A stretch of DNA of 64,000 bases from an uncultured Verrucomicrobiaceae bacterium (GCA_964473925.1 CAYYVW010000007.1:37205-101204), one strand, 5' to 3'; positions 39,048-53,220 are shown, numbered from the stretch's first letter. Numbers and translations: made by a program. The notes: a model not told the origin generated them from the sequence alone.

Positions 39048-42000
39048 ATGGCACAGCGGCAAGGTCTTGGAATGCGTAGCGGCCGGATGTGCGCATTGAG
39101 TGGACGTGCGGCTGAAGCATTCACCCGTAGAGACTGGACCGCCTTTCTAATCGTCGCCCTTATCAGTTTTGCGACCTATCTTTATACCCTTGCGCCCAGT
39201 GTAACCCTCGAAGATGCGGGTGAGCTCATCACCGGCGCAGTCCAATTCGGTGTCCCACACCCCCCCGGTTATCCGCTCTGGTCCCTTTTCAGCTTTTTCT
39301 TCAGCCATTGGATCTTGCCATTAGGAAATTGGGCATGGCGCATCAACGTCGTTTCGGCGGTCTTTGGCGCATTGGCCAGCGGACTAGTCGCTTTACTCGC
39401 AAGTCATTCAACCCGATGGCTTTTGGATTCTTGGATTAAGCAGCGCGAGAATTCAATTTCAGAAAGTGAAAGCAGCCCAGATTATAAGCAATTCTTTGAT
39501 TATCAATGGATTACACAAACTAGCTTTTTTGCTGCCATTGCCAGCGGCCTGATCATCGCCTGGAGTGATGTCATGTGGAGCCAATCCGTGATTGCGGAGG
39601 TCTACACGCTAAATGCCTTCTTCCTAATGTCCACGTTGACAACGTTTTATAGATGGGTTCGCTCTCCGGGCCAGACACGATGGCTCCTAGCCAGCGTCCT
39701 CGTCTTCAGCCTGGGACTGACTAATCACCATACCCTGATTATCTTGCTACCGGCCTTTGTCCTAGCCGTTGGTTGGATCCGACCGAGGCTCTTCCCCAGC
39801 TTCCTAGTCGGACTGACCCTTTTCGGACTTTCAGCCCTGACCGTCCTGACATGGTACTCTCAGTTTGATGATCCGACCAATCCAGCTCTAGAGCAAACTA
39901 CACAACGCGTTGCAGCTGCAGCTCTTATATTCATCTTAGGACTCGGAATTTGGCACTGTCGCCGCTTCTCGTTTCGAAGCGCTCTCCTGGGGGGAATTCT
40001 CGCTGCCATCGTGTGGATTGCCGGAAATTTCCTCCTAGGCGGTAATCTGGAAATCCAGACGCTGGTTGGCTGGTCTTTGTTGGGCCTTGGGATCTTGGCT
40101 CTGGGCGCGCTCTGCACCTCTCGCCTACGACTGCAATTCATCGGCCGCCTTTTCTTACTGGGATGGATCGGGCTCCTTCCGTACGCGTACATGCCATTCG
40201 CATCGAGCACCAACCCCCCGATGAACTGGGGCTTCGCTTCGAGTCGCGGTGGATTTTACAACGCCTTCAATCGCGGCCAGTACGACAACAACCTCGCCGC
40301 GACCCTCGTCAAAACAGTCGGCCGAGTGGCAGGCGCGGATCAAGGTCTGTTACCCAAAGCGGTTTCCAATACCCAGTATGGAAATTGGACGAGCGCCGTT
40401 TCTGCGATTTTTTCTTACTGGCACAGTCTGGAAGAAAATTTTTCGCTCTTGGTAATCTTGGCGATTCTTCCCGCGCTTTACCTCGGCTGGCGAGTGCGTC
40501 GCGAAGTCCGCAGCTGGCTAGTCTTCCTGCTGCTCGCGTTCCTTTCCGTAGCCTTCTTGCTGAGCTTGCTTTATCCACCTTTAGATCTGGACCGGCAACT
40601 GCTCTGGATCGGCAAGACGTTTAACCTGCAATCACACTGCCTTTTTGCGCTCGGTTTGTCGTATGGATTGGGGGCAGGGCTTTGTCTTTTGCTCGTCTAT
40701 CTCAAGGAGGGGAAAGATGACGCATCCCTCAAATTATCAAATTTCGAAGTACTCTCTCGACTAGGAGTTTGTCTGTTCCTGGCCATTAGCTTCATTCCGC
40801 TCTGCATCAACCTGAACCAATGCAGCCAACGGGGGCACTGGTTTGGATGGCGGTATGGCTATGAGCTGCTCCACAGCCGAGAGCCCGGCGCGGTCATTTT
40901 CGGCGGGACGGATGCCGGCCGGTTTATTCCCACCTACATGATTTTCTGCGAGTCGCAGCAACCCGCGCGATGGAAGCGCGACGCCAATTTTGACCGGCGG
41001 GATCTTTACATCATCACTCAAAACGCGCTCGCGAGCACCCATTACCTCAATTACATCCGTTTTCATTACGACGCCCGCTGGCGGCCGACAGAATGGAACG
41101 CGTTCGAGCGCTGGCTGGGCCGTGATCACCAGTACCCGACGCAGTCCCTCTCACTTCCTGATACCGATGACTGGACGCGCGCCCTGCAACAACTCACCGC
41201 CCAACAAAGCAGCCGGACTCAGAATGGGCAGTCCGCCTGGAGCGGGATTGAAGAAATCTTCGCTTTCAACGGCCTGCTGGCGCGGCATATTTTTGAATCC
41301 AATAAGCTCAAACACGCTTTCTACGTTGAAGAAAGCATGGCGATTCCGTGGATGTACGATTATGCCGTTCCGGCGGGCGCGCTGCTCAAGCTCACGCCTC
41401 AATTTCATCCGCCGCTCACACCGGAAATTTTTGCTAGTGACCGCGCTTATTGGACGCCGCTGATTGACGAGCTAGTTGCCGACCCGCGCTTCTCTTTGGA
41501 TCCGCCGGCTCAAGGGGCTTTTGCGAAACTCCGCCTCGCGATCGGCAATCTTTACCGCAATCGCGGTTTTTTGAAGGAAGCCGAGCACGCCTATCGAGAC
41601 GCCCTACGCCTCGACGCCGCCCATCCCGAGGCGACGCTTCAACTTTCGGAGCTGCTGCAAAATCAAAAGCGATTTGAGGAAGCGGTCGTCGTCGTCCAAA
41701 ACGCGTTGGCGCTCGACCCCAACAACCGGCATTTCCAGAATGGGCTGACAGTCCTGTTTTCAATAAAGGGACAAGCGGAACGGCTCGATTCCCTGGAAGC
41801 GGCGCTTAAGGAAAAGCCCGCGCAGGTTGATTTGCATGACCAGCGCCTTTCAATTCTCTGGAGCCTCCGTAAAGACGCCGCGTACGAACAAGCACTGAGC
41901 GAGGCTCTGGAACGCCTTGCTCCAGAAAATATTCCGGCGGAAATTTTGCGCAACTGGATCGACCACTTATTTTTGATGGGGCGGCGATCGGGCGCGCTTC

Positions 42001-42338
42001 GCATTTTATCGCGCTATCACGCGCGCGCACCCGGCAACTTGGACGTGATGTATAACCTCGGAATGCTGCAAGTGCAGGAGGGGGCTTTTTCTCGGGCCTT
42101 GCCTCTCTTGAGTCAATTTGCGCGATCCGCGCCCGAAGCCTTCGCGGATGCACTGCGACGCGATGCGCGCTGGAAAAGCTTCGGCGCAAACCCTGAATTT
42201 AGGCGGCAGTTCGCAGGGTTGCTGGCTGCGACACCACGATCGGCCGGCGGAAAAAATGAAGCGGGTGCCCGCACCAATACCACCCCCTCGTCTCAGCCTG
42301 CCGCCATCTCGTTGCCGCCGATAGTTCCGCTGCCTTAA
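39048..42338 (+). CDS. DUF2723 (TMEM260-like, GT-C fold) membrane glycosyltransferase with C-terminal TPR domain
   Basis: 1096 aa. The N-terminal signature YLYTLAPSVTLEDAGELITGAVQFGVPHPPGYPLW is characteristic of DUF2723. Many TM segments follow. C-terminal TPR-like repeats include AEHAYRDALRLDAAHPEATLQLSELLQNQKRFEEAVVVVQNALALDPNN. The start could be Met1, Met9 or Met14. Confidence 0.8.
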   Translation: MAQRQGLGMRSGRMCALSGRAAEAFTRRDWTAFLIVALISFATYLYTLAPSVTLEDAGELITGAVQFGVPHPPGYPLWSLFSFFFSHWILPLGNWAWRINVVSAVFGALASGLVALLASHSTRWLLDSWIKQRENSISESESSPDYKQFFDYQWITQTSFFAAIASGLIIAWSDVMWSQSVIAEVYTLNAFFLMSTLTTFYRWVRSPGQTRWLLASVLVFSLGLTNHHTLIILLPAFVLAVGWIRPRLFPSFLVGLTLFGLSALTVLTWYSQFDDPTNPALEQTTQRVAAAALIFILGLGIWHCRRFSFRSALLGGILAAIVWIAGNFLLGGNLEIQTLVGWSLLGLGILALGALCTSRLRLQFIGRLFLLGWIGLLPYAYMPFASSTNPPMNWGFASSRGGFYNAFNRGQYDNNLAATLVKTVGRVAGADQGLLPKAVSNTQYGNWTSAVSAIFSYWHSLEENFSLLVILAILPALYLGWRVRREVRSWLVFLLLAFLSVAFLLSLLYPPLDLDRQLLWIGKTFNLQSHCLFALGLSYGLGAGLCLLLVYLKEGKDDASLKLSNFEVLSRLGVCLFLAISFIPLCINLNQCSQRGHWFGWRYGYELLHSREPGAVIFGGTDAGRFIPTYMIFCESQQPARWKRDANFDRRDLYIITQNALASTHYLNYIRFHYDARWRPTEWNAFERWLGRDHQYPTQSLSLPDTDDWTRALQQLTAQQSSRTQNGQSAWSGIEEIFAFNGLLARHIFESNKLKHAFYVEESMAIPWMYDYAVPAGALLKLTPQFHPPLTPEIFASDRAYWTPLIDELVADPRFSLDPPAQGAFAKLRLAIGNLYRNRGFLKEAEHAYRDALRLDAAHPEATLQLSELLQNQKRFEEAVVVVQNALALDPNNRHFQNGLTVLFSIKGQAERLDSLEAALKEKPAQVDLHDQRLSILWSLRKDAAYEQALSEALERLAPENIPAEILRNWIDHLFLMGRRSGALRILSRYHARAPGNLDVMYNLGMLQVQEGAFSRALPLLSQFARSAPEAFADALRRDARWKSFGANPEFRRQFAGLLAATPRSAGGKNEAGARTNTTPSSQPAAISLPPIVPLP

Positions 42339-42435
42339 AACGTATTGAGCATCCCAGCCTCCACGGGATGTACCGCCGGAGCTTGCTCTGGCGCGAAGGC
42401 GGATGGTAGTCTGACACCCATTCCTCGATAGCGCC

Positions 42436-44037
42436 ATGAATTCAAGCCATTCGCATGAATCAATCGCTCAGGTTATCCCTGCGGTTGGCCCTATTGGCAC
42501 ATACCGCAAACGGACGATCTTCCTTCTGTTTGTCCTTCTGTTGATTCGTTTTTGGCTTAGCCAGACTTTTGAACTGACGGGGCAGGAAGCTTATTACTGG
42601 ATGATGAGTCGTCCTGACGGGCTCGATTGGGGGTATCTGGACGTTGGCGCGGTGGTTCCGTGGTTGATTCGACTGGGCACTTGGATGTTTCAGAACACTG
42701 AGATGGGGGTGCGCTGGATTGCCACAAACGCTTTCATTGGCGTGGGCTTTATTCTCTTTTACGTCGTGCGCGCCTGGTTTGGGTCGCGGGCGGGTTTTTG
42801 GACGACGGTGGCGTTTTGCGTGATGCCGCTGCACGCGTGGCACATGCTGCTCATGACGCCGGCGACACTCAGCACCGCCTGGATGGCGCTGGCGTTGCTC
42901 ACCTACCGAGAGGCAGTGCAGGGCGGGCGCGTCGGCTGGTGGATCGCGGCGGGACTCGTGTCGGCCGTCGCGGTCCTAACCTCGTGGATCAACTTTCTGT
43001 GGCCCCTGGGATTGGCGGCCTATTTGTTCTTTGAACCGTCGCAACAACATTGGCTCAAGCGGGTCTCGTTCTGGATTTTCGCGGCAATTTCTCTCGCGGC
43101 GTGGATCCCGATCGCGCTCTGGATGCAGCGGCCAGACGTGCAAGATGTGCGCCTATTGCACGATGTGGCGCTGGCGCAGGTTCATCACCCGTTTTCGCTT
43201 TTCCAGGGCGTTCATTTTCTCTGGGATCAGATTTGGCTCTGCAGCCCGCTCTTCTTTATCTTGCTCGCGTTTGCGGTCCTGCACGTGCTTCGCTCCCGCG
43301 CCAAAGCTGAGGCACACCGAATGCTCTTGTGGTTAGCAGTGCCAGCCTGGGTGCTTCAATGGGCGGCGAGCCTCTTTGGCCTGCATCAACCGGCAGCACT
43401 GGCTCCGCTTTACCTGCCGCTTTTGGTCTTAGCGGTCCATGTTGCCGTTGAATTCTTTGATCGCCACCGCCGTACCGCCTGGCTGGGCTTGGTATTACTC
43501 GCGCTGACGCTGACCCAAACTATTGCGGGGCTCATGCCCGGCGTATTTGTCCATCCCGCGTTCAACCCCGGGCTTTACCAATCCTGGTCCTGGCGCGCCG
43601 TGGCGGAAGAAGGACACCGCCTCAAGCGCGAGAAAGGCGCCACCTTCTTCCTCGCAACGGCGCCCGAAACCGCCGGCGCTCTCTCTTTCTACCTGCCGCA
43701 ACAGCCGCCGGTGTACTTGGTGCATGATAAACAGCGTGAACTCTCCCAGTTTGATTTCTGGCCCGACTACCGCGACTTCTCCAATGACGAAGCGATTTTG
43801 ATTCTACCCACACCAGAGCCTGTCCCCGCGGCGATGCATGAATTCGGCGCGGTTGAGCCCATCGTGGACGTCTTCCTGCCAGATCCAACGCGGGAACAGT
43901 GGGCCTTCTACTTTGGGCAGAACTACGGTGGCGCAGCCGATCCAGCACCGGAGGGAGCTGCAGCTGATGATTCAGATGCCGGCGCGACCGAAAAACTCCC
44001 GCATTCCAAGCACGGGAAACGCAAGCACGCTGACTAG
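42436..44037 (+). CDS. GT39/ArnT-like (PMT_2-type, GT-C fold) membrane glycosyltransferase
   Basis: 533 aa and polytopic. First-loop motif LTGQEAYYWMMSRPDGLDWGYLDVGAVVPW resembles the DEAYYW/WGY pattern of ArnT/dolichyl-phosphate-mannose transferase-like enzymes. Confidence 0.7.
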   Translation: MNSSHSHESIAQVIPAVGPIGTYRKRTIFLLFVLLLIRFWLSQTFELTGQEAYYWMMSRPDGLDWGYLDVGAVVPWLIRLGTWMFQNTEMGVRWIATNAFIGVGFILFYVVRAWFGSRAGFWTTVAFCVMPLHAWHMLLMTPATLSTAWMALALLTYREAVQGGRVGWWIAAGLVSAVAVLTSWINFLWPLGLAAYLFFEPSQQHWLKRVSFWIFAAISLAAWIPIALWMQRPDVQDVRLLHDVALAQVHHPFSLFQGVHFLWDQIWLCSPLFFILLAFAVLHVLRSRAKAEAHRMLLWLAVPAWVLQWAASLFGLHQPAALAPLYLPLLVLAVHVAVEFFDRHRRTAWLGLVLLALTLTQTIAGLMPGVFVHPAFNPGLYQSWSWRAVAEEGHRLKREKGATFFLATAPETAGALSFYLPQQPPVYLVHDKQRELSQFDFWPDYRDFSNDEAILILPTPEPVPAAMHEFGAVEPIVDVFLPDPTREQWAFYFGQNYGGAADPAPEGAAADDSDAGATEKLPHSKHGKRKHAD

Positions 44038-44058
44038 GCAAACTTACCGAAGGGCGCG

Positions 44059-45006
44059 CTATTTCTGTCGCATGTTAATATCGAAGAGCGACGAGACGGA
44101 CGTGCCGTCGTGAATCCGCTTGATCGCTTCACCGAGCATCTCGGCCACAGAGAGCACTGTCAGCTTGAGGCCGGGCACTGGCTCGAGCGGACAGGAGTTG
44201 GTCGTGATGAGCTCATCGAGCGCAGAATCCTTAAGCCGCTCGATCGCGATATCGGTCAGGATCGTGTGGCTCACGCCTGCGAAGACGCGCCGCGCGCCTT
44301 CTTCCTTCACCTTCGCCGCAGCGGCGCAAAGCGTGCCAGCTGTCTCGGTCAAGTCGTCGACGAGCAGGACGTCCTTGCCCGCCACTTCGCCCACGACAAA
44401 CTGCGCTTCGATATCCGTCGCACTCACGCGCTTTTTAGTGACGATCGCAAGGCCCGCGTTGAGCATCTGCGAGTAGGCCAGCGCCATCTTCATCCCGCCC
44501 ACGTCGGGCGAAACGACTACCAGGTTATCGAGCTTTTTCTCCGCCAGATACCGGTAGATAACCGGCGCGGCGTAGAGGTGATCAACCGGAATATCAAAGA
44601 ACCCCTGAATCTGCTGCGCGTGCAAGTCCATCGTCAGCACGCGATCAACGCCCGCAGCGACGAGTAGGTTGGCCACGAGCTTGGCCGTGATCGGAACGCG
44701 CGGCTGGTCCTTGCGATCCTGCCGGGCGTAGCCGTAGAACGGAATGACCGCCGTCGTGCGTGTCGCGCTGGCCCGCCGCGCTGCGTCGATCAGGATCAGC
44801 AGCTCCATCAAATTCTGGTTCGTCGGCGGGCACGTCGGCTGAACGATGAACACGTCCCGGCCGCGGACGTTCTCCTGGATTTGCACGCGCGTCTCGCCAT
44901 CCGGGAACGTCGCCACGTCCGCTTCGCCCAGCGGCACGCCGACGTACTTGGCGATATCCTCCGCCAGCTTGCGATGCGCCGTTCCGGTAAAAATCTTCGG
45001 CTCCAT
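44059..45006 (-). CDS. prs: Ribose-phosphate pyrophosphokinase
   Basis: 315 aa. YGYARQDRK, VVSPDVGG, PRPP loop LLVDDLTETAGT. Confidence 0.95.
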   Translation of the reverse strand: MEPKIFTGTAHRKLAEDIAKYVGVPLGEADVATFPDGETRVQIQENVRGRDVFIVQPTCPPTNQNLMELLILIDAARRASATRTTAVIPFYGYARQDRKDQPRVPITAKLVANLLVAAGVDRVLTMDLHAQQIQGFFDIPVDHLYAAPVIYRYLAEKKLDNLVVVSPDVGGMKMALAYSQMLNAGLAIVTKKRVSATDIEAQFVVGEVAGKDVLLVDDLTETAGTLCAAAAKVKEEGARRVFAGVSHTILTDIAIERLKDSALDELITTNSCPLEPVPGLKLTVLSVAEMLGEAIKRIHDGTSVSSLFDINMRQK

Positions 45007-45237
45007 GCCGGGGAGACTTTGGCAGCCTCAAGGACGAAGGCAAGGAGGAAGAACTCGCAAAGCTTTCTACCGCCTCCGGAGGCATTCGCCCCCAGCCACC
45101 GGAACGCACGCATCAGCCTGAACGTCACCGAGCAAGGCTTCGACGCCTTCCGCAAAATGGGCAAACGCACCGGCGTCGGCCATCAGCAACTCATGCGCGG
45201 AATGAGGGAAGAAACTGAAGGCGGCGTAAGCTCGCCA

Positions 45238-45561
45238 ATGGTTTGGATTTGCTTGGGCAAATTAAATTGGTACACCTTTGTTGTGAAGCACCGCACATTT
45301 TGGACGGCTCTTATTCTAACCAACCTTGTTTGTGCATGTAGTTCTGTTCCTATAACAATGGTCAAGTTACCAGACGGAAGCACCGGGTATTCAGTCGTCG
45401 CAAATAAATTTATTTATGAAGCCGGACAAAATATTTCTCCGGAAGAATTAATTAAAAAAAGAGTGCGTGATTATGGTCGATTGAAAGACCGGGAAATAGA
45501 AATCATTGAATATCATTATATCAATGATGGCATGATCGAAGCTCTAGTGAAGGCAAAATAA
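45238..45561 (+). CDS. Small AT-rich putative lipoprotein / exported protein
   Basis: ATG at 45238. An alternative GTG at 45283 gives a cleaner signal (V)KHRTFWTALILTNLVCAC-SS. The coding sequence is far more AT-rich than its flanks. It ends 1 nt before the AAA+ gene. No family recognised. Confidence 0.5.
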   Translation: MVWICLGKLNWYTFVVKHRTFWTALILTNLVCACSSVPITMVKLPDGSTGYSVVANKFIYEAGQNISPEELIKKRVRDYGRLKDREIEIIEYHYINDGMIEALVKAK

Positions 45562-45562
45562 C

Positions 45563-46876
45563 ATGCCCCAACCCCTTTTCGCCAACGCGTCGCTCTTTAC
45601 GCCGCCGGAGCCGGAGTCGCTCGAGACACTCGATATCAACCCGACGACGCTCGAGGGGATTATCCTGCGCCTGCTTCACATGAATACGACGATGGTCGCG
45701 CACGAGATCGCCGACACGGTCTGCCTCCCATTCTTTAACGTCGTCGAGCCGATCCTCAACAGCTTGCGCGAAATGCGCTACGTGGAGATCACTAAGGGGG
45801 AACTCGCCGCGGTCTCCTACCACTACACGATCAGCGACGCCGGCCGCGCCCGGGCGCTGCAGTACTTTGAGATGACCAGTTACGTGGGCCCAGCGCCGGT
45901 CTCGATTAATGCTTACAATAAGTCCGTACAGGAACAATCCTTGGCCAACATCACCGTCAACGCGCAGCGACTGCGGGAGGCGTTCGAGGGCCTCGTCTTC
46001 CACGAATCGATCCTGGACCAGATCGGCCCCGCGGTAAATTCAGGCCGGTCGATCTTCCTGTACGGCCCACCCGGGAATGGGAAAACGTCGATCTGTGAGC
46101 GGATCGTTCAGTCGTTCGGCGGCGCGATTTTTATCCCGACCTGCGTGGAGGTCTCAGGGCAAATCATCCGAATTTTCGACGAGTACAACCACAAGCCAAT
46201 CGCGCCCGGCGGCGACATGCGGCTGGAGAGCAAGTACGACCGCCGCTTCCGGCTGATCGAGCGGCCCATCATCGTCGTGGGCGGCGAGCTGACGATGGAA
46301 AGCCTGGACCTCATCTGGAATCAGGAGTCAAAGTTCTACGAGGCGCCGTTCCAGATGAAGGCCAACGGCGGCGCGTTCATGGTCGACGACTTTGGCCGGC
46401 AACGCGTCGAGCCCAAGGTGCTGCTCAACCGGTGGATCGTGCCGCTGGAAAAGCGGATCGACTTTTTGACGCTCCACACCGGCACCAAGATTGAAATCCC
46501 GTTCGACGAGCTCATCGTTTTTTCCACGAACCTCAATCCGCGCGACTTGGTGGATGAGGCGTTCCTGCGGCGCATCCGGTATAAAATTCCGATCAACGAC
46601 CCAACGCCGGAGCAGTTCCGCGAAATCTGGAAGCTCGTCAGCCGCGGTAAAAAAGTCCCGTACGCGGACGAGGTGGTCGACTACTTCATCCAGAAACATA
46701 TCGAGCCCCAGGGCCGGCCGCTGCGCGGGTGCTTGCCGCGGGACATCCTCGATCACGTCGTCGATGCGTGCCGGTTCGAGCAGAAGGAGATTACCCTCAC
46801 ACCCGCGCGGATCGACGAAGCCGCCCGCGCGTATTTTGTCAAATTCGACGACGCCGGGTATAAGCTGGTCGCTTAG
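45563..46876 (+). CDS. AAA+ ATPase with N-terminal winged-helix-like domain
   Basis: 437 aa. Walker A LYGPPGNGKTS, Walker B-like AFMVDDFGRQ (DD, no Glu), sensor-1 VFSTNLNP, Arg-finger region VDEAFLRRIRYKI. About 100 aa separate Walker A and B, which is unusually long. Confidence 0.8.
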   Translation: MPQPLFANASLFTPPEPESLETLDINPTTLEGIILRLLHMNTTMVAHEIADTVCLPFFNVVEPILNSLREMRYVEITKGELAAVSYHYTISDAGRARALQYFEMTSYVGPAPVSINAYNKSVQEQSLANITVNAQRLREAFEGLVFHESILDQIGPAVNSGRSIFLYGPPGNGKTSICERIVQSFGGAIFIPTCVEVSGQIIRIFDEYNHKPIAPGGDMRLESKYDRRFRLIERPIIVVGGELTMESLDLIWNQESKFYEAPFQMKANGGAFMVDDFGRQRVEPKVLLNRWIVPLEKRIDFLTLHTGTKIEIPFDELIVFSTNLNPRDLVDEAFLRRIRYKIPINDPTPEQFREIWKLVSRGKKVPYADEVVDYFIQKHIEPQGRPLRGCLPRDILDHVVDACRFEQKEITLTPARIDEAARAYFVKFDDAGYKLVA

Positions 46877-46942
46877 GCGGGCGGCGGCTTAAGATTAACA
46901 TTGTCGCGCTTTTGTGCGGCTGGCATACAGGCTCTCCACGCC

Positions 46943-47671
46943 GTGAAAAAATTGAATCTCTGCCGCTGCTTTTGTCTGAGCTTGGGACTGGTCTTGAGCC
47001 TTTGGGCACTGCCTGTCCGCGTCGCTGCGGCCGATTCCATCCCCCGCGAAACGATCATTATTTCCGGCGGTCCGGCGCTGCGGTATTTTGAGCGCGGCAA
47101 GCGCAACTCGCACGATAAGTCGTGGCGCAACTTTATTGTCGCCGCAGAGCTCCAAATTAAAAAACTGCAGCCGACCACCCAGGCTGGAGATCGCATCACA
47201 TGGATGGTTTTCCGCCCCGGCTACCAGACCCGCGCTCAAGAAGAACAGGACAAGGTGCTCGAGGAAATCAAAGCGAAGGCTGCCGCGCTGAAAGTCGACC
47301 TTCTCTGGTTTGATACGACCGATCAACTCGTCAACTACTTGAATAGCGGCCAGGATCGCCGCCGAATGCCGATCGGACGCTTCGATTATTTCGGCCACTC
47401 CAACCGCGCGTGTTTTCTTTTTGATTACAGCAATCATGTAGATGGCCTCTCGACCATGTACCTGCACGAGAACCAGCTCGCGCGCATCCGGCAAAACGCT
47501 TTTGCCAAGGACGCCACTGCGCAAAGCTGGGGCTGTCATTCGGGAGAATCCTACAGCGCGGCGTGGCGCAAGCGTTTCGGCACGCCAATGCTCGGCGCAA
47601 TTGGGAAGACCGATTACTCCAACGGCGCGTTGCCGACCCTGTCGAGATCCGTCGGAAGGTGGACGCAGTGA
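46943..47671 (+). CDS. Exported hypothetical protein (His...Cys dyad, possibly caspase/clan-CD-like fold)
   Basis: The ORF is open from TTG at 46901. The GTG at 46943 gives the signal peptide (V)KKLNLCRCFCLSLGLVLSLWALPVRVAAA-DS. Contains FDYFGHSN and, about 45 aa later, QSWGCHSGES. Confidence 0.55.
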   Translation: MKKLNLCRCFCLSLGLVLSLWALPVRVAAADSIPRETIIISGGPALRYFERGKRNSHDKSWRNFIVAAELQIKKLQPTTQAGDRITWMVFRPGYQTRAQEEQDKVLEEIKAKAAALKVDLLWFDTTDQLVNYLNSGQDRRRMPIGRFDYFGHSNRACFLFDYSNHVDGLSTMYLHENQLARIRQNAFAKDATAQSWGCHSGESYSAAWRKRFGTPMLGAIGKTDYSNGALPTLSRSVGRWTQ

Positions 47672-48381
47672 AGCGCTTATTCGCCGTTCTTCTGATTGTT
47701 GCGATTTCAGGCGCGGGAGCTTTCGCGCAGCAAACCAATGCGGCTGCGCCCATTCCCATCCAACCATTGGCGACTCCTTCCACCAACGCGCCGGCTCCAG
47801 CCAAGAAAGAACATAGCGCGCCCACTCAGCCGTCAACCAATGCTCCAGCTGCAATTGCGGTAAAACCTTCGACGAACGCGGCCCCCGCTGTAGCCGCAAA
47901 TCCTACGGCCTCCGCCCAGCCTTCCAAGCCGCGGCCCGAGCCGCGCGTGCCGGTAAAGCTCACACCGCCGCCGGAGTTTGCCGAGCCCGTCTACGTTGCG
48001 CATCGATACTACGAAGAAAAAGGGGCTGGCTGGGGCTGGATCAAAAAACTGAAAGAATCCTGGTCGAGCGCCAAATGGGTTGCCCTACAAGAGACCCCCG
48101 GCAAAGCGGTGGCGCCGTGGCGCCGCAGCGGCGATCGGCAATCCGATCACAATTACGAATACCGCTTCTATGGGGTTTTCGCATCCTACTTGGCTTACGA
48201 TCCGCACCGGGATGAAACGATGCCGGTTTTTATCCTAAAGGGATACGAACCGATCGGGGAGGCGCCCGCGCTCGGTCGCAAGCCCGGGCCGCCAATGCGC
48301 TTTACCCGCTCCAAGAAAAGCGGCGCTTCTTCGCGCAGCGACCGACCGGTGCTCGGCAGCGGGGATGAGGATTGGTTCTAA
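47668..48381 (+). CDS. Exported Pro/Ala-rich protein with PSTNA repeats
   Basis: The GTG at 47668 overlaps the upstream stop (GTGA). Signal (V)KRLFAVLLIVAISGAGAFA-QQ. Three PSTNA(P/A) repeats are followed by a globular Trp/Tyr-rich C-domain. Confidence 0.5.
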   Translation: MKRLFAVLLIVAISGAGAFAQQTNAAAPIPIQPLATPSTNAPAPAKKEHSAPTQPSTNAPAAIAVKPSTNAAPAVAANPTASAQPSKPRPEPRVPVKLTPPPEFAEPVYVAHRYYEEKGAGWGWIKKLKESWSSAKWVALQETPGKAVAPWRRSGDRQSDHNYEYRFYGVFASYLAYDPHRDETMPVFILKGYEPIGEAPALGRKPGPPMRFTRSKKSGASSRSDRPVLGSGDEDWF

Positions 48382-48991
48382 CGCTTTTGCTCCTGCTATG
48401 CGTCCCTTTGATCTTCTCGGTGCCATTCTCGCCGGCTGCGTGCTGGGCAGTTGTTTTTTGCCTTGGGCAAAATTCACACCCAGTTCGTCTCGTTCACCAC
48501 AAGCCGCGGTTGCATTAGCAAAGCGGATTGCCGCGGAGGAAGATCGTTCCTGGAACAGCGCGTGGCTAGGGATGTCGGCTTCCGAATTGGATGCGACGTG
48601 GCACAACCCCTGGGACGGAATGAGCGCGTGGGCGCTGGCCGAAACAGATCCCTCACACACTCATTTCAAACGCATTGAACAAAGTCAGGTCGTCGGCCAA
48701 ACGCGGACTGCCGATCGTCTACGACTTATCTACCTAGCACCCGGCGCTGCCATCTTCGCGCTGCTTTTCTTAGCGGGATGTCACGCGCGGCGCTGGCCTC
48801 TGCTTTTGCCGCTCTTTGCCTGCGGGGGAATATACGCTCTCATTAGATGGCGACTGCAAACGTCCGAGCTCGATCGCTGGACCGCCGGCCTGGAAGCGGG
48901 GATCGGTTTGTGGCTGGCGCTCTATGCGCTGCTAGCCTTGTCGATTGTTCTTTTGTTGCGCATGCTGCTTCCGGCGCGCTGGGGTGTTTAG
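48365..48991 (+). CDS. Hypothetical membrane protein (about 4 TM)
   Basis: 208 aa. Overlaps the upstream gene by 17 nt (alternative ATG at 48398). Hydrophobic segments are LLGAILAGCVLGSCFL, LIYLAPGAAIFALLFLAG, LLLPLFACGGIYALI and GIGLWLALYALLALSIVLLL. Confidence 0.5.
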   Translation: MRIGSNAFAPAMRPFDLLGAILAGCVLGSCFLPWAKFTPSSSRSPQAAVALAKRIAAEEDRSWNSAWLGMSASELDATWHNPWDGMSAWALAETDPSHTHFKRIEQSQVVGQTRTADRLRLIYLAPGAAIFALLFLAGCHARRWPLLLPLFACGGIYALIRWRLQTSELDRWTAGLEAGIGLWLALYALLALSIVLLLRMLLPARWGV

Positions 48992-49011
48992 AGGCGCTGC
49001 CTTTCCTGAAC

Positions 49012-50346
49012 ATGAGCGCTCCCTCTTTTCGCAATGTCCTACGTGAGCGCAATTTTTCCCTGCTCTGGAGCGGGCAAGTCATCTCGTCCATCGGGGACCG
49101 CCTCTACCAACTCGCACTGGTAAAAATCGCCCTCGACTTAGGCCACCGGACTGCCGTCGGCATGGAAGGAGCCCGGCTCACCTTCTTCGGGCTTTTACCA
49201 GGCCTGCTCCTTGCGCCCTGGCTCGGTTGGGTGGTGGACCGATACTCCCGCCGCCAGGTGATGATTTTCTCCGACCTTGTCCGCGCGGCATTGGCGCTCT
49301 CATTTATTCTATGCGTTGGCACACAACGACCCGAATGGGCCGTCTATCTGCTCGTGCTAGCGATGGGCGCAGCCAGCTCGCTCTTTATCCCAGCGCGTCA
49401 GGCGATTTTACCCCAGCTGGTACGCCCGCAAGATCTTGTCACCGCTAACGCACTTATCTCGTTGGTTGGAATTATTGCCCATCTTTTCGGTGCGCTCGGG
49501 GGCGGGCTGCTCATCGCGGTCTTCGGAACCACCAGCAGCTTTGTGCTCAACAGTGCTGGCTTCATCGTGTCCGCCTGCCTGATCGCTTCTATCTTACCAA
49601 CGTCCGGAAGACTTGTACCAGAAACGGAACCCTCGATGCCCCGGCAAACAGGCTTGGGAGCATGGCTGGAGGGTTGGCGTACTCTGCAGGCGCGACCGAT
49701 GCTCTTTTCGCTCACGCTTGCCAGCGGCATCTTTGCTTTCACCAGCGGCCTTTTCTTAGTGACGCTCATCGAGCAGGTCGCGCACTACGCAGACCTTTCT
49801 TTTGCAAGCGCCACCGCAACCACACTGACAACATGGCTAACGCCGTTTGCTCCAAAACCGCCGGTTATCAATATCCCGTTCTTAGCGATTGGGATGACGC
49901 TCGCCGCACTGGGCGTCGGGCTAGGGCTCGGCGTCTTGTTCTGCGGCAAGTCACGCATCTGGCCGCGGTGGAAGCCGCTCCCCATCGCCGCGCTCGTCGC
50001 CGTGGGCATTGGTATTTTTCTCTTCGGCGGATTTTCGTCCCTCTACGGAATTGTGATCGGTTCCGTCGCGCTTGGGATGCTCGGCTCGGTGATGGCGATT
50101 CCGATCGAGGCGCGGTTGCAAGAGGAAACGCCGGCGCCGGTTCTGGGCCGCGTCTTCGCGCTGCGTAATTTTATCACAACCGCCAGCTTCTTGGCCGCCA
50201 TGGCGATTAATTTAGATGGACGACTGCTCACAGCACTCGGCCCCGGTCAGATGCAGCGAGCGCTCGGCATCCTCGCCGTCGTGCTGGCCGCTCTCCTGTG
50301 GTTGCCGCGTCGCCGCGGATGGTCGGGCTTTTGGCGAAAAGATTGA
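49012..50346 (+). CDS. MFS transporter (DUF894/EntS-like subgroup)
   Basis: The ATG at 49012 gives MSAPSFRNVLRERNFSLLWSGQVISSIGDRLYQLAL, typical of this MFS subgroup. About 12 TM; motif GWVVDRYSRRQVM. Confidence 0.8.
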   Translation: MSAPSFRNVLRERNFSLLWSGQVISSIGDRLYQLALVKIALDLGHRTAVGMEGARLTFFGLLPGLLLAPWLGWVVDRYSRRQVMIFSDLVRAALALSFILCVGTQRPEWAVYLLVLAMGAASSLFIPARQAILPQLVRPQDLVTANALISLVGIIAHLFGALGGGLLIAVFGTTSSFVLNSAGFIVSACLIASILPTSGRLVPETEPSMPRQTGLGAWLEGWRTLQARPMLFSLTLASGIFAFTSGLFLVTLIEQVAHYADLSFASATATTLTTWLTPFAPKPPVINIPFLAIGMTLAALGVGLGLGVLFCGKSRIWPRWKPLPIAALVAVGIGIFLFGGFSSLYGIVIGSVALGMLGSVMAIPIEARLQEETPAPVLGRVFALRNFITTASFLAAMAINLDGRLLTALGPGQMQRALGILAVVLAALLWLPRRRGWSGFWRKD

Positions 50347-50619
50347 GAACCTATTTGGCAAAAACCACGGTGCGCGCGGCGAGCGGTTGTGGCGGCAGAC
50401 ACGGAGTAAGGGAGGGAGTGTATCCGCAGCGATACTCGACCGACCGAGCGACACCGTCTGCCGCCGCAGGCGCCGCCGCCCAAAGGGTTGCCGCTCTTTT
50501 GCCTTCCGGCTTCTTTGCTCGCGTGGTCGAAGATCGCTTCGGATATTCTCCCGCGCTCGCGCCTCGCCAGAGGGCAAAACCTCGGGCAACGCGTACAGTG
50601 GTTTTTGCCAAACAGGTTC
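50346..50619. other. 274-bp intergenic element bounded by a 23-bp inverted repeat (structured RNA or MITE-like element)
   Basis: AGAACCTATTTGGCAAAAACCAC (50346-50368) pairs with GTGGTTTTTGCCAAACAGGTTCT (50598-50620) with one A/C mismatch. An internal 12-bp hairpin pairs GTGGCGGCAGAC (about 50389-50400) with GTCTGCCGCCGC (about 50456-50467). A small TCGAAG-ATCG-CTTCGG hairpin is also present. Confidence 0.5.
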
Positions 50620-50665
50620 TAAGACGTTGTGCAGATGCTTAAAATCACGTAACATTTTCCCTCGC

Positions 50666-51769
50666 GTGAGCCAAAAAAAATCCAACGATAGCGAAGCGTT
50701 GGATCATCTCCATGTCGTGATTCTCGCCGGCGGCAGCGGCGAGCGTTTCTGGCCGCTTTCCCGCGACGTCACGCCCAAGCATCTGCTGCGCTTCTTTGAT
50801 GCAGAGCCGCTCATCGCCAAAACTGTCCGGCGGCTGGAAGGACTCGTTCCTTTCGAGCGCATTTGGATTTTAGTGCAGGAAGCACAGCTGGAAGCCACTG
50901 CGCAAGCTCTGCCGCAATTGCCGCGCTGTCAATTTATCGCGGAGCCTGCCCGCCGCGATACGGGGCCCGCCGCCGCGCTCGCCGCCGCGCTTGTGCGCGC
51001 CCGCGATCCCCATGGCATTGTCGCGTTGCTACCGGCCGATCACCTCATCGTAAATGCCGCTGCATTACGCACGCAGCTGGCCCAAGCTGCAAAGGCCGCC
51101 GCCGCTCAAGCCGCTTTTGTCACTTTTGGCATTCTTCCCACTCATCCGGCCGATGGATTTGGATACTTGAAAATTGCCGGGCCGGCAGCGGCTTCAGATT
51201 TTTTTCAAGTGGAACGATTCGTGGAAAAGCCAGACATCAAAACTGCTACAACGTATCTTAAAGAAGGCGGATACTCTTGGAATTCGGGTATGTTTGTCTG
51301 GAAGACGGAGACGTTTCTCTCCGAAGCTAAGCGCCTGCAGCCGGAGCTGGCTGCGTTTGTTGAAAAATATCCGGCAGCGCCGACTGCGGCTGAAGCGTAT
51401 GTCCGCGAGCGCTTCTCCGCGCTGCCTAAAATTTCGTTTGATTACGCGATTTTGGAAAAAGCAGCAAACGTGCTCATGCTGCCCGCCGCGTTCGATTGGG
51501 ACGACGTCGGCAGCTGGACCGCGGTCGCACGGCACGCGGCATGCGACGCAAACGGCAATGCAATCCTCTCATCGAAAAACAACACGGTCGCGCTGCACGA
51601 AGCGCAAGACAATGTCGTCGTGAACGAATGTCCGGACAAGCCGATCGCTCTTTGCGGCGTAAACAACCTCGTAGTCGTTCAGACCGCCGACGCACTGCTG
51701 ATCTGCCACAAAGAAGCAGCGCAGAAAATTAAAGCGCTGCTGGGCAGCCTGCCGGAAGAACTGCGATAA
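50666..51769 (+). CDS. manC: Mannose-1-phosphate guanylyltransferase (GDP-mannose pyrophosphorylase)
   Basis: The ORF is open from 50216, but homology begins at HVVILAGGSGERFWPLSR. The GTG at 50666 is the nearest plausible start. No C-terminal cupin/PMI domain (short form). Confidence 0.8.
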   Translation: MSQKKSNDSEALDHLHVVILAGGSGERFWPLSRDVTPKHLLRFFDAEPLIAKTVRRLEGLVPFERIWILVQEAQLEATAQALPQLPRCQFIAEPARRDTGPAAALAAALVRARDPHGIVALLPADHLIVNAAALRTQLAQAAKAAAAQAAFVTFGILPTHPADGFGYLKIAGPAAASDFFQVERFVEKPDIKTATTYLKEGGYSWNSGMFVWKTETFLSEAKRLQPELAAFVEKYPAAPTAAEAYVRERFSALPKISFDYAILEKAANVLMLPAAFDWDDVGSWTAVARHAACDANGNAILSSKNNTVALHEAQDNVVVNECPDKPIALCGVNNLVVVQTADALLICHKEAAQKIKALLGSLPEELR

Positions 51770-51777
51770 GACGCGTT

Positions 51778-53220
51778 CTATTCCAGCGGCGGCCGCCTCT
51801 TGTGCCAATCTGTTGACTGCTCGTACGCATGCGCGGCACGCAAGATGGTCGCCTCTCCGAAATGCGGCCCTAGCAACTGGAACCCGATCGGCAGATTCTC
51901 TTTCGTAAATCCGCAGGGGATTGAAATACCGCAGTTGCCCGCGAGATTAGCCGGCGCGGTAAAAATATCCTCCAAGTACATCTGCAGCGGATCTTCCACC
52001 TTATCACCCAGCTTGAACGCCGGCGCTGGAGAAGTCGGCGCGGCGATGACATCACACTTTTCAAACGCCTGCTCGAAGTCTTGCCGAATCAGCTGCCGGA
52101 CTTTCTGCGCGCGATTATAAAAAGCGTCGTGATAGCCCGAGCTGAGCACATACGTTCCCAGAATAATCCGGCGCTTCACCTCCGAACCAAATCCTTCGCC
52201 GCGCGTACGGCCGTACATCTCCAGCAAGTCATCCGTATTCTGCGCGCGATGTCCATAGCGCACACCGTCGAAGCGCGCGAGGTTGGCGGAGGCTTCAGCC
52301 GGAACGATGATGTAGTAAGTCGCAATCGCGTGCTGGGTGTGTGGCAGCGACACTTCCACCGTTTTGGCGCCCAGGGACTCCAGCTGCGCGATCGCGGCAC
52401 GGACCGCTTTCTCAACCTCAGGGTGAATGCCGTCGATGAAATATTCTTTCGCGACGCCAATGCGCAGCCCCTTCACACCTTGCGCGAGCGCCGCGCGGTA
52501 ATCAGGAACGGGCACCTGCGCCGACGTGTTGTCAGCCGGGTCATGCCCCGCCATCGCTTGCAAGAGCAGCGCCGTATCTTCCACGGTTTTGGTCAGCGGC
52601 CCAATTTGATCCAAGCTCGAAACAAACGCCACTAGGCCGTAACGCGAAATGCGGCCGTATGTCGGCTTAAATCCCACGCAGCTGACCATCCCCGCCGGCT
52701 GACGAATCGAGCCGCCGGTGTCCGACCCCAGGCCCGCGATTGCCAAATGCCCGGCAACCGCCGCCGCCGAGCCACCGCTCGAACCGCCGGGCGTGCGCGC
52801 CTGATCCCACGGATTGCGCGTGAGACCCCAGCCGGAATTCTCCGTCGAAGCCCCCATTGCAAATTCGTCCATGTTCATCCGGCCTACGAAAAACGCTCCG
52901 GCCTCCCGAAGTCGTGCGATCGCCGTCGCATCGTACGGCGCAACGTATCCCTTCAAAATCTTCGAAGCGCACGTGCACGATTGCCCAAGCACCCCAATGA
53001 CATCCTTCACCGCAATCGGAATGCCGCCCAGCGGTCCGCTTACATCGGCAGCCGCTGCGTCTGCGAGCGCCCGTTCGCGATCCAAGGCGAGGTACGCCCC
53101 CACCGAAGGGTCATGCGCATCAATCCGCTCGAAAAGCGACTGGACGATATCAACCGGAGAAATTTCTTTCGACTTTAGTTTTCCGCGAAGCGACGTGATC
53201 GTCTCAAAGGCAAGGCTCAT
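51778..53220 (-). CDS. gatA: Glu-tRNA(Gln)/Asp-tRNA(Asn) amidotransferase subunit A
   Basis: 480 aa. Amidase signature GGSSGGSAAAVA...GSDTGGSIRQPA. Confidence 0.95.
   Translation of the reverse strand: MSLAFETITSLRGKLKSKEISPVDIVQSLFERIDAHDPSVGAYLALDRERALADAAAADVSGPLGGIPIAVKDVIGVLGQSCTCASKILKGYVAPYDATAIARLREAGAFFVGRMNMDEFAMGASTENSGWGLTRNPWDQARTPGGSSGGSAAAVAGHLAIAGLGSDTGGSIRQPAGMVSCVGFKPTYGRISRYGLVAFVSSLDQIGPLTKTVEDTALLLQAMAGHDPADNTSAQVPVPDYRAALAQGVKGLRIGVAKEYFIDGIHPEVEKAVRAAIAQLESLGAKTVEVSLPHTQHAIATYYIIVPAEASANLARFDGVRYGHRAQNTDDLLEMYGRTRGEGFGSEVKRRIILGTYVLSSGYHDAFYNRAQKVRQLIRQDFEQAFEKCDVIAAPTSPAPAFKLGDKVEDPLQMYLEDIFTAPANLAGNCGISIPCGFTKENLPIGFQLLGPHFGEATILRAAHAYEQSTDWHKRRPPLE

Follow-up and report, generated by a model that had tools for sequence, protein, structure and literature searches.

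The proteins closest to those described here belong to several known groups. The classical AAA+ ATPases, among them CDC48/p97, PAN, Vps4 and spastin, carry a GPPGxGKT Walker A motif, a Walker B motif ending in DE, a sensor-1 Asn, an LLRPGRFD arginine-finger segment followed by a helical lid, and usually an aromatic residue in the pore loop. MoxR ATPases occur with vWA partners (BatA-type), and IetA (IteA) is the A component of IetAS-like anti-phage or plasmid-stability systems, in which it is partnered by the subtilase-like protease IetS. The clan CD peptidases (caspase, legumain, metacaspase type) are α/β sandwiches having a His and then a Cys after hydrophobic strands, and the MFS_3/DHA3 exporters include EntS, Mef and LplT-like proteins.

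Six plus-strand open reading frames, g1 to g6, lie at positions 45238-45561, 45563-46876, 46943-47671, 47668-48381, 48365-48991 and 49012-50346 of a 64,000-nucleotide window (the whole stretch of DNA analysed) from an uncultured Verrucomicrobiaceae bacterium. The first two are 1 nt apart and the second and third 66 nt; g4 overlaps g3 by GTGA, g5 overlaps g4 by 17 nt, and 20 nt separate g5 from g6. This layout reproduced that of an earlier, sequence-only reading, which had joined all six genes into one candidate undescribed envelope system built of a lipoprotein, a cytoplasmic ATPase, two exported proteins and two membrane proteins. Tight same-strand spacing is frequent in bacteria and is by itself no sign of a system, and it was this spacing alone that led the first reading astray. 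Comparison with related loci indicates that the block is, most probably, a side-by-side placing of three independent units: g1, g2, and the four genes g3-g4-g5-g6. The block is closed, as had been read, by an inverted-repeat element (50346-50620) whose 104-nt arms, at 50346-50449 and 50517-50620, are 72% complementary and whose RNA fold has a free energy of -158.6 kcal/mol (z = -10.25). The element is single-copy within the window, was absent from all related loci, and is a separate feature, no part of the cassette in relatives.

The first of the six, g1 (45238-45561, plus strand, 107 codons), belongs to no conserved unit. Its proposed AT-richness was confirmed, with a GC content of 38% against about 59% in the neighbouring genes, but whether it is a gene at all, or a lipoprotein, is doubtful. 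A search of 5.8 billion protein clusters returned its own 67-aa gene call and nothing else; plasmid and phage sequences gave no match, and no homologue was found at any of 87 AAA+ loci or of the 83 g3 loci tested for g1. The codon score is -0.13 bits/codon, with codon usage atypical of the host, and 4% of random sequences of matched composition yield an open frame as long (p≈0.04). The only lipobox candidate, V-C-A-C34, is marginal, having a Cys at -2 that is atypical of the [LVI][ASTVI][GAS]C consensus, and the start codon is ambiguous (GTG 45283 and ATG 45358 are other possible starts). The ORF may be either a recently acquired, genome-specific small gene or plain AT-rich non-coding spacer.

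The second gene, g2 (45563-46876, plus strand), encodes a cytoplasmic wHTH-AAA+ ATPase (437 aa) that stands alone and belongs to a widely conserved unnamed family. Its predicted features agreed well with what had been read from the sequence. The N-terminal domain (aa 11-110, 45593-45892; AlphaFold2 pLDDT 65-93) is a MarR-like winged helix, for which Foldseek retrieved MarR-family regulators from the PDB (probability about 1.0; E as low as 1e-3), and which superposes on 2obp over 82 columns (TM 0.71, rmsd 2.9 Å). The Walker A motif GPPGNGKT (aa 168-175, 46064-46087) is invariant or nearly so in alignments A1 and A4. Walker B, AFMVDD (aa 271-276, 46373-46390), lies 101 aa further on (K174 to D275) within the signature DDFGRQ, and all 36 homologues aligned, the most distant at 35% identity, keep D275, D276, G278, R279 and Q280 unchanged. 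T322 and the sensor-1 N323 (STN323) are nearly invariant and R336/R337 invariant, at classical-AAA spacing; this segment aligns with the corresponding region of VAT, Msp1 and Vps4, and FLRRIRY of g2 occupies the place of LLRPGRFD, with a helical lid following. Of the marks of the classical clade, Walker A, sensor-1 and the arginine fingers were present, whereas the catalytic Glu of hhhhDE was replaced by Asp. The protein differs from classical members also in its MarR-like N-domain, in an insertion of about 45 aa, and in the VGGE loop after it, in which the usual aromatic pore residue is missing.

In the PDB and NCBIfam, g2 matches classical-clade proteins best, but only over about 30-60 residues near Walker A and the sensor/Arg region. 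Pfam matches are confined to the Walker A region, PF00004 scoring 22.3 bits against a cut-off of 21.2 across 34 residues only, and no specific or full-length Pfam or NCBIfam model and no solved structure was found for the family. In the AlphaFold2 model the lid (aa 350-425) is built with good confidence and the core poorly, pLDDT being below 50 across most of aa 126-345 except at about 210-230. More than 8000 homologues were retrieved. The best 120 hits stand at 60-76% identity, and the few sources named for them are verrucomicrobial; sequences from Chloroflexota, Myxococcota, Armatimonadota and Acidobacteriota stand at 43-49%. N-terminal fusions to FHA or HDOD domains occur in g2 relatives, which suggests signal-regulated activity. 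The protein is most likely an oligomeric ATP-dependent remodeller or switch acting on a cytoplasmic target, a classical-clade AAA+ in which about 45 extra residues are inserted between the two Walker motifs.

Neither of two named arrangements fits g2. As had been read, the ATPase falls outside MoxR layouts: its weak bpMoxR/Mg_chelatase likeness is at the P-loop, bpMoxR scored 19.7 bits against 27 and AAA_5 13.3 against 22, and no vWA partner was found among the genes of the window, in the verrucomicrobial AAA+ loci annotated with Pfam, or among recurrent neighbours at other loci. IetA/IteA was the top PADLOC and NCBIfam match (E 1e-8 to 2.5e-8), which would make g2 the A component of an IetAS-like system. 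That identity is extremely unlikely, since NF042959 scored 33.5 bits against a cut-off of 510 and PADLOC IetA 32.5 bits, no protease or IetS subtilase-like partner lies in the flanks here or at the Pfam-annotated verrucomicrobial orthologue loci, and g2 is of core type, conserved as a single copy across phyla, and not a patchy island gene.

Conservation of the gene neighbourhood of the AAA+ orthologues had been set beforehand as the test of the six-gene proposal, and the neighbours proved to be unrelated. HMM profile searches of 87 AAA+ loci (1.08 Mb; from five other verrucomicrobial genomes and from Chloroflexota, Myxococcota and others) revealed no homologue of g1, g3, g4, g5 or g6, and the AAA+ gene was found at none of 85 g3 loci. 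The orthologues of the five verrucomicrobial genomes (LW23, Tous-C9LFEB and three metagenomic contigs), at 72-76% identity, have neighbours that differ on both sides from those in the window and from one another: Clp_N and a PAS kinase; MgtC and Poly_export; YchF; proteins of CCG/Fer4 and ankyrin type; YchF and Poly_export. Outside the Verrucomicrobia, in phyla such as Chloroflexota and Myxococcota, the neighbours are lineage-specific. The contigs of the nearest relatives (85% and 76% identity) end before the downstream genes.

It is thus very improbable that the six genes together make up a single envelope system powered by the ATPase, with the AAA+ protein energising or regulating a lipoprotein, an exported pair, a 4-TM protein and an MFS transporter. 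Such a system would agree with the close packing of six ORFs on one strand and with the g2-g3 interval, where no recognisable terminator was detected. Against this, besides the separation seen at the 87 AAA+ and 85 g3 loci, the AAA+ and g3 genes lie on separate contigs in two genomes (Tous-C9LFEB and LW23), the AAA+ family is common in phyla in which 80 AAA+ loci were scanned and no g3-g5 homologue was found, and g1 has no homologue at all. The 66-nt gap between g2 and g3 holds only a weak hairpin; neither terminator nor promoter was detected in it, nor a σ70-like promoter across the whole region scanned, so read-through co-transcription of g2 and g3 in this genome is possible. With g2 read as a unit of its own, it would be a housekeeping or regulatory gene of monocistronic type, working independently of the genes downstream.

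What remained of the proposed envelope system is the block g3-g4-g5-g6, which recurs in four other contigs. In these products the signals for export and membrane insertion were recovered as predicted (signal peptides on g3 and g4, 3-4 TM helices in g5, and the MFS fold in g6), and the earlier statement that g3, g4 and g5 match no recognised family was borne out by searches of Pfam, NCBIfam, PADLOC and PHROG. The first cassette gene, g3 (46943-47671, plus strand), encodes an exported α/β protein of 242 aa with a signal peptide. It has 453 homologues, nearly all of whose given source names are verrucomicrobial, and 35 invariant positions, grouped after β-strands, that include H57, D58, H152, S153, N154, D161, S163, C198, H199, E202, T223 and D224 (alignment A2). 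The AlphaFold2 model is confident (pLDDT 86.9, pTM 0.82), and because the invariant positions cluster after β-strands in it, g3 looks like an enzyme. It would be a periplasmic enzyme on a Rossmann-like α/β scaffold, with an active site formed at the strand ends by H152-S153-N154, C198-H199, E202 and D224. Foldseek found no structural neighbour for g3 in the PDB (best TM 0.37, to Rossmann-type enzymes, and no hit with E<0.001), and neither a sequence nor a structural precedent for a catalytic role was found.

The order of the presumed catalytic residues also invites comparison with clan CD. Within an α/β sandwich, a His precedes a Cys, each following a hydrophobic β-strand (FDYFG-H152 and SWG-C198-HSG) as in the clan CD dyad, CHSG resembles the metacaspase CHSG motif, and the C-terminal tails of g4 are conserved; g3 might then be a clan-CD-like cysteine hydrolase or transpeptidase that processes the Ser/Arg-rich, acidic-aromatic tail of g4. 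The resemblance is one of motif only, and the identification is unlikely: the top 50 Foldseek hits (best TM 0.37) include no caspase fold, hhalign against caspase-3 gave a probability of 1%, a profile search of all PDB sequences came back empty, and 32 members showed no Peptidase_C13, C14 or CHAT signal in Pfam.

The product of g4 (47668-48381, plus strand, 237 aa) is an exported protein and putative partner of g3. It consists of a signal peptide, a Pro/Ala-rich linker, a conserved GWGW domain (about aa 109-215) and a Ser/Arg-rich tail ending in an acidic-aromatic motif, and homologues back the GTG start at 47668 against a shorter public gene call at 47947. It matched no family in Pfam, NCBIfam or PADLOC and no PDB sequence. 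An Fe/Mn superoxide dismutase C-domain was considered and rejected, as only 12 residues around GSGWGW align (probability 4%) and the DxWEH metal ligands are missing. In most of the 23 of 85 g3 loci where a g4 homologue follows directly downstream, its start overlaps the g3 stop or lies within about 10 nt of it, and g4 is proposed to be a translationally coupled periplasmic partner or substrate of g3.

Downstream, g5 (48365-48991, plus strand) encodes a small inner-membrane protein with 3-4 TM helices by hydropathy. Its start is probably ATG 48398, which is that of the public gene call and the point where homologue N-termini align by eye; this would leave a 16-nt gap after g4 in place of the 17-nt overlap. 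Homologues with 28-34% identity directly follow g4 in contigs L087, L089, L090, L173 and L174, and the protein may serve as a membrane adaptor. The last gene, g6 (49012-50346, plus strand), encodes an MFS transporter of MFS_3/DHA3-like type, with 10 hydrophobic segments detected (about 10-12 TM) and Pfam scores above gathering for PF07690 (MFS_1; 84.6 bits against 33.4) and PF05977 (MFS_3; 57.9 against 27). All NCBIfam equivalog cut-offs were missed (TIGR00900, the best, 138.5 against 319.6; LplT 63.8 against 297; EntS 62.6 against 324), and identity with LplT, EntS or Mef was rejected. The transporter would carry a small molecule, either a substrate or a product, across the inner membrane.

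Orthologues of g6 (47-48% identity) follow g5 in L087, L090, L173 and L174, and in these verrucomicrobial contigs the order g3, g4, g5, MFS_3 and the tight spacing are kept, with junctions of 2-40 nt or overlaps. The flanks vary from glucokinase/FAA_hydrolase to LysM-amidase/TatA to, in the window, AAA+/ManC. The recurrence of the four genes in order, together with the finding of no described family for g3 to g5, indicates that an uncharacterised envelope-targeted cassette exists. The linkage is seen directly; the biochemical roles we infer. The association may be less tight than that of a true operon: across the 85 g3 loci g4 is adjacent in 23, g5 in 5 and MFS in 4, g5 and MFS join the g3-g4 pair in the closest clade alone, and the majority of g3 homologues sit singly amid housekeeping genes. 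These counts would also suit a functional link limited to g3 and g4, with g5 and the transporter as lineage neighbours kept by recent common descent, as would the arrangements in Methylacidiphilum (g3-g4 alone) and LW23 (g3-g4-g4'-g5, with no MFS) and the rapid divergence of g5. Such a restriction is rather unlikely, however, as the four-gene order survives while both flanks change and the junctions remain so short or overlapping.

In summary, the recognisable parts of this block, the AAA+ and MFS proteins, are divergent forms of known kinds, and for the rest lack of an assignment is not the same as newness. Separating g2 from the genes around it prevents the cataloguing of what had looked like a "new ATPase-powered envelope machine". 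Two leads are left in its place: a highly conserved wHTH-AAA+ family with an invariant DDFGRQ signature, whose FHA/HDOD fusions hint at a signalling-controlled remodeller, and a cassette of which three products, all but the MFS protein, have no family and one, g3, no structural neighbour in the PDB. Tentatively, and with low confidence, the cassette may be an undescribed Verrucomicrobia-specific envelope module in which the Cys/His enzyme g3 acts on or with g4, perhaps processing its C-terminal tail, and a small membrane protein couples the pair to an MFS exporter, the wHTH-AAA+ proteins separately forming an unnamed family of signal-regulated remodelling ATPases that spans phyla. As verrucomicrobial envelopes are poorly understood, the cassette is a clear-cut target for genetic work in a cultured carrier such as Methylacidiphilum.

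The six plus-strand reading frames that the sequence-only reading had proposed as a candidate undescribed envelope system are all present: an AT-rich ORF (g1, 45238-45561), an AAA+ ATPase (g2, 45563-46876), two exported proteins (g3, 46943-47671, and g4, 47668-48381), a small transmembrane protein (g5, 48365-48991) and an MFS transporter (g6, 49012-50346). Their junctions are also as described, with gaps of 1 nt (g1/g2) and 66 nt (g2/g3), a GTGA overlap (g3/g4), a 17-nt overlap (g4/g5) and a 20-nt gap (g5/g6). Public gene calls on a Logan contig of the same genome (100% identical) are concordant for g2, g3 and g6, and shorter for g1 (67 aa), g4 (144 aa, starting at 47947) and g5 (197 aa). Because all 22 of 22 g4 homologues begin at the g3 stop codon with an N-terminal signal peptide, the 237-aa reading of g4 from GTG 47668 is upheld as the correct one, and homologues favour ATG 48398 as the start of g5. 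The minus-strand ORF of 334 codons at 46895-47899, antisense to g3 and to the first part of g4, is an artefact of high GC content that longest-ORF heuristics preferred to the real gene, here and in related loci. Genes in the compared loci were therefore found by HMM searches across all ORFs, replacing longest-ORF calling and its antisense picks in high-GC DNA. The block stands in a glycan or envelope context, with two large PMT_2/DUF2723-type glycosyltransferase-like membrane proteins upstream (39048-44037), one having an apparent TPR-like C-terminal region, and a mannose-1-phosphate guanylyltransferase (ManC) downstream (50666-51769).

The proposal that the six genes constitute one conserved system does not hold. 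Synteny around the AAA+ gene is not conserved, and its orthologues have unrelated neighbours, the outcome that the sequence-only reading had itself named as refuting. Orthologues at 72-76% identity were compared in five other verrucomicrobial genomes or contigs, and on both sides the AAA+ gene has neighbours unrelated to those in the window and unrelated from one genome to the next. Homologues of g1 and g3-g6 were absent from all ORFs of 87 AAA+ loci (1.08 Mb), as searched with profile HMMs for g3, g4 and g5 and with phmmer for g1 and g6. In the genomes Tous-C9LFEB and LW23, the AAA+ gene and the g3 homologue are found on separate contigs. The 66 nt between g2 and g3 yielded neither a terminator nor a promoter, and read-through transcription is possible in this genome; even if real, it would not turn g2 and the downstream genes into one system.

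A search for a conserved AAA+ partner in other phyla (80 loci) turned up lineage-specific synteny only. In a large subset (35 loci) of the Chloroflexota loci, which are mainly from Anaerolineae, the AAA+ gene is followed on the same strand and within a few nt by an apparent glycerophosphodiester phosphodiesterase (GDPD) gene and then by a ~940-aa membrane-anchored GH3-like protein, with a divergent GT2 glycosyltransferase upstream (identities assigned by eye; examples are L018 7932-12922 and L025 7980-12844, among loci L005-L084). For that class alone, the arrangement is a hint of a connection with the envelope; the neighbours differ in Chloroflexia, Myxococcota and Armatimonadota. Only in LW23 (locus L003, 6697-17317), among the genomes compared, does the orthologue have a proteostasis neighbourhood, made up of ClpC, a McsB-type arginine kinase and three Clp_N-domain proteins.

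A different picture of linkage was obtained for the exported proteins. Searches with g3 returned 453 homologues, nearly all of them verrucomicrobial where source names are given. With those added by a metagenome scan, 83 g3 loci were available for comparison, 69 of which have at least 700 nt downstream, and iterative HMM searches over all ORFs placed g4 immediately 3' of g3 in 21 of the 83, g5 in three and the MFS gene in two, with the AAA+ gene and g1 in none. The g4 start overlaps the g3 stop or falls within ~10 nt of it in most cases. More distant g3 homologues are solitary, among genes read as lysA, bioB and nadD. On the strength of this survey g3-g4 is the firm unit, to which the window's closest clade adds g5 and an MFS_3 transporter. 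Tous-C9LFEB has the order g3-g4-g5-MFS as well, with no AAA+ gene there, and so do two further close relatives (L173, L174), with gaps or overlaps of 2-18 nt and different flanks; Methylacidiphilum caldifontis has g3-g4 only, and LW23 has g3-g4-g4'-g5. The g4 gene is tandemly duplicated in LW23 (L089, 7787-9042), with two ~200-aa paralogues between g3 and g5.

The signal peptides attributed to g3 and g4 were borne out, that of g3 being of type I. The g3 model is a confident one of a Rossmann-like α/β sandwich (pLDDT 86.9, pTM 0.82), and 35 invariant positions, mostly at β-strand ends, include H57-D58, H152-S153-N154, D161, S163, C198-H199, E202 and T223-D224. A Foldseek search of the PDB returned nothing at E < 0.001 (TM at most 0.37), no match came from a PDB-sequence profile search or from Pfam on 32 members, and the window's own copy has none in NCBIfam, PADLOC or PHROGs. 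There is a resemblance to clan-CD peptidases in the placing of His before Cys and in a 'CHSG' motif; a caspase or clan-CD identity is unsupported by Foldseek, by hhalign against caspase-3, and by the same PDB profile and Pfam searches. The g4 protein consists of a signal peptide, a variable Pro/Ala-rich linker (missing in L173 and L174), a conserved GWGW-motif domain and a Ser/Arg-rich tail. A SOD-like C-domain, its sole PDB resemblance, was rejected, as just the 12-residue GWGW motif aligns. In the clade with g5 and MFS, g4 has an acidic-aromatic C-terminus (DEDWF, DGDSF, DEDYY, DDDSF; window 48300-48381 and contigs L087, L090, L173 and L174) that could be a recognition tail; in the clade without them, g4 ends in DPGVD. 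Four transmembrane segments had been claimed for g5, and three to four were found. The MFS fold of g6 was confirmed, the protein passing the MFS_1 and MFS_3 thresholds and reaching no NCBIfam equivalog cut-off.

The AAA+ protein belongs to a large and strongly conserved family, with more than 8000 matches and 789 cluster representatives (50% identity) under E = 1e-30, for which neither Pfam nor NCBIfam holds a specific model. The best 120 matches, verrucomicrobial in the few cases where a source is named, are 60-76% identical, and members from Chloroflexota, Myxococcota, Armatimonadota and Acidobacteriota 43-49%. The organism is a verrucomicrobium; for g2 and g3 alike, the few named sources of the best matches are verrucomicrobial, mostly MAGs of Methylacidiphilales type. 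A literature search on the AAA+ and cassette protein families found nothing. The motifs read earlier are correct: Walker A is GPPGNGKT (aa 168-175), and Walker B is DD rather than DE (AFMVDD, aa 271-276, 101 residues past K174), with D275, D276, G278, R279 and Q280 invariant across 36 homologues at identities as low as 35%. Sensor-1 (STN323) and R336/R337 lie at classical-AAA spacing, and matches in the PDB and NCBIfam to CDC48, PAN, Vps4 and spastin are confined to the P-loop and the sensor/Arg region. AlphaFold modelled the core poorly (mean pLDDT 56) and aa 11-110 confidently, the latter a segment that Foldseek matched to MarR-type winged helices, in agreement with the winged-helix-like N-terminal domain originally described. 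Identities as MoxR or IetA/IteA were rejected, with scores far below cut-offs and the expected partner genes absent. Some longer homologues carry N-terminal signalling domains (FHA in P0138 and P0143, HDOD in P0146), and these fusions suggest that the activity of the family is under phospho- or second-messenger regulation.

Two features border these genes. The g1 ORF is best treated as an unverified gene: among 5.8 billion protein clusters it matches nothing but its own shortened gene call, its codon usage differs from the host's, and simulating the segment with a first-order Markov model gave open frames of 107 codons or more in 4% of cases. This segment (45200-45560; 38-41% GC, g1 itself 38%) is the most AT-rich 300-nt stretch in the 64 kb, as would fit an insertion of foreign or non-coding DNA between prs and the AAA+ gene. 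A phage or plasmid origin was rejected, since searches of plasmids, phages and PHROGs all came back empty. The DNA upstream of AAA+ orthologues, compared by eye without alignment, is ordinary, apparently unrelated intergenic sequence and shows no evident conserved 5' leader; no Rfam match falls upstream of the gene, the sole match in 44000-52000 being sub-threshold at 49533-49602. The inverted repeat taken as the end of the block (275 nt, 50346-50620) does lie directly 3' of it, right after the MFS stop codon. It has 104-nt arms that are 72% complementary, near-perfect 22-nt termini (GAACCTrTTTGGCAAAAACCAC), and a Y-shaped RNA fold (-158.6 kcal/mol, z = -10.25). It occurs once in the window and in none of the related loci, and could be either a MITE-like element or a large hairpin serving as terminator or stabiliser.

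The AAA+ protein is unrelated to the g3-g4-g5-MFS cassette. It is probably an oligomeric cytoplasmic remodeller or switch, with slow hydrolysis predicted from its DD Walker B and regulatory input predicted from the wHTH, FHA and HDOD domains. Within the cassette, where the linkage of the genes is established, g3 probably acts as a periplasmic enzyme, with g4 as its co-translated partner or substrate; g5 would serve as a membrane adaptor, and the MFS protein would export or import a small-molecule substrate or product.
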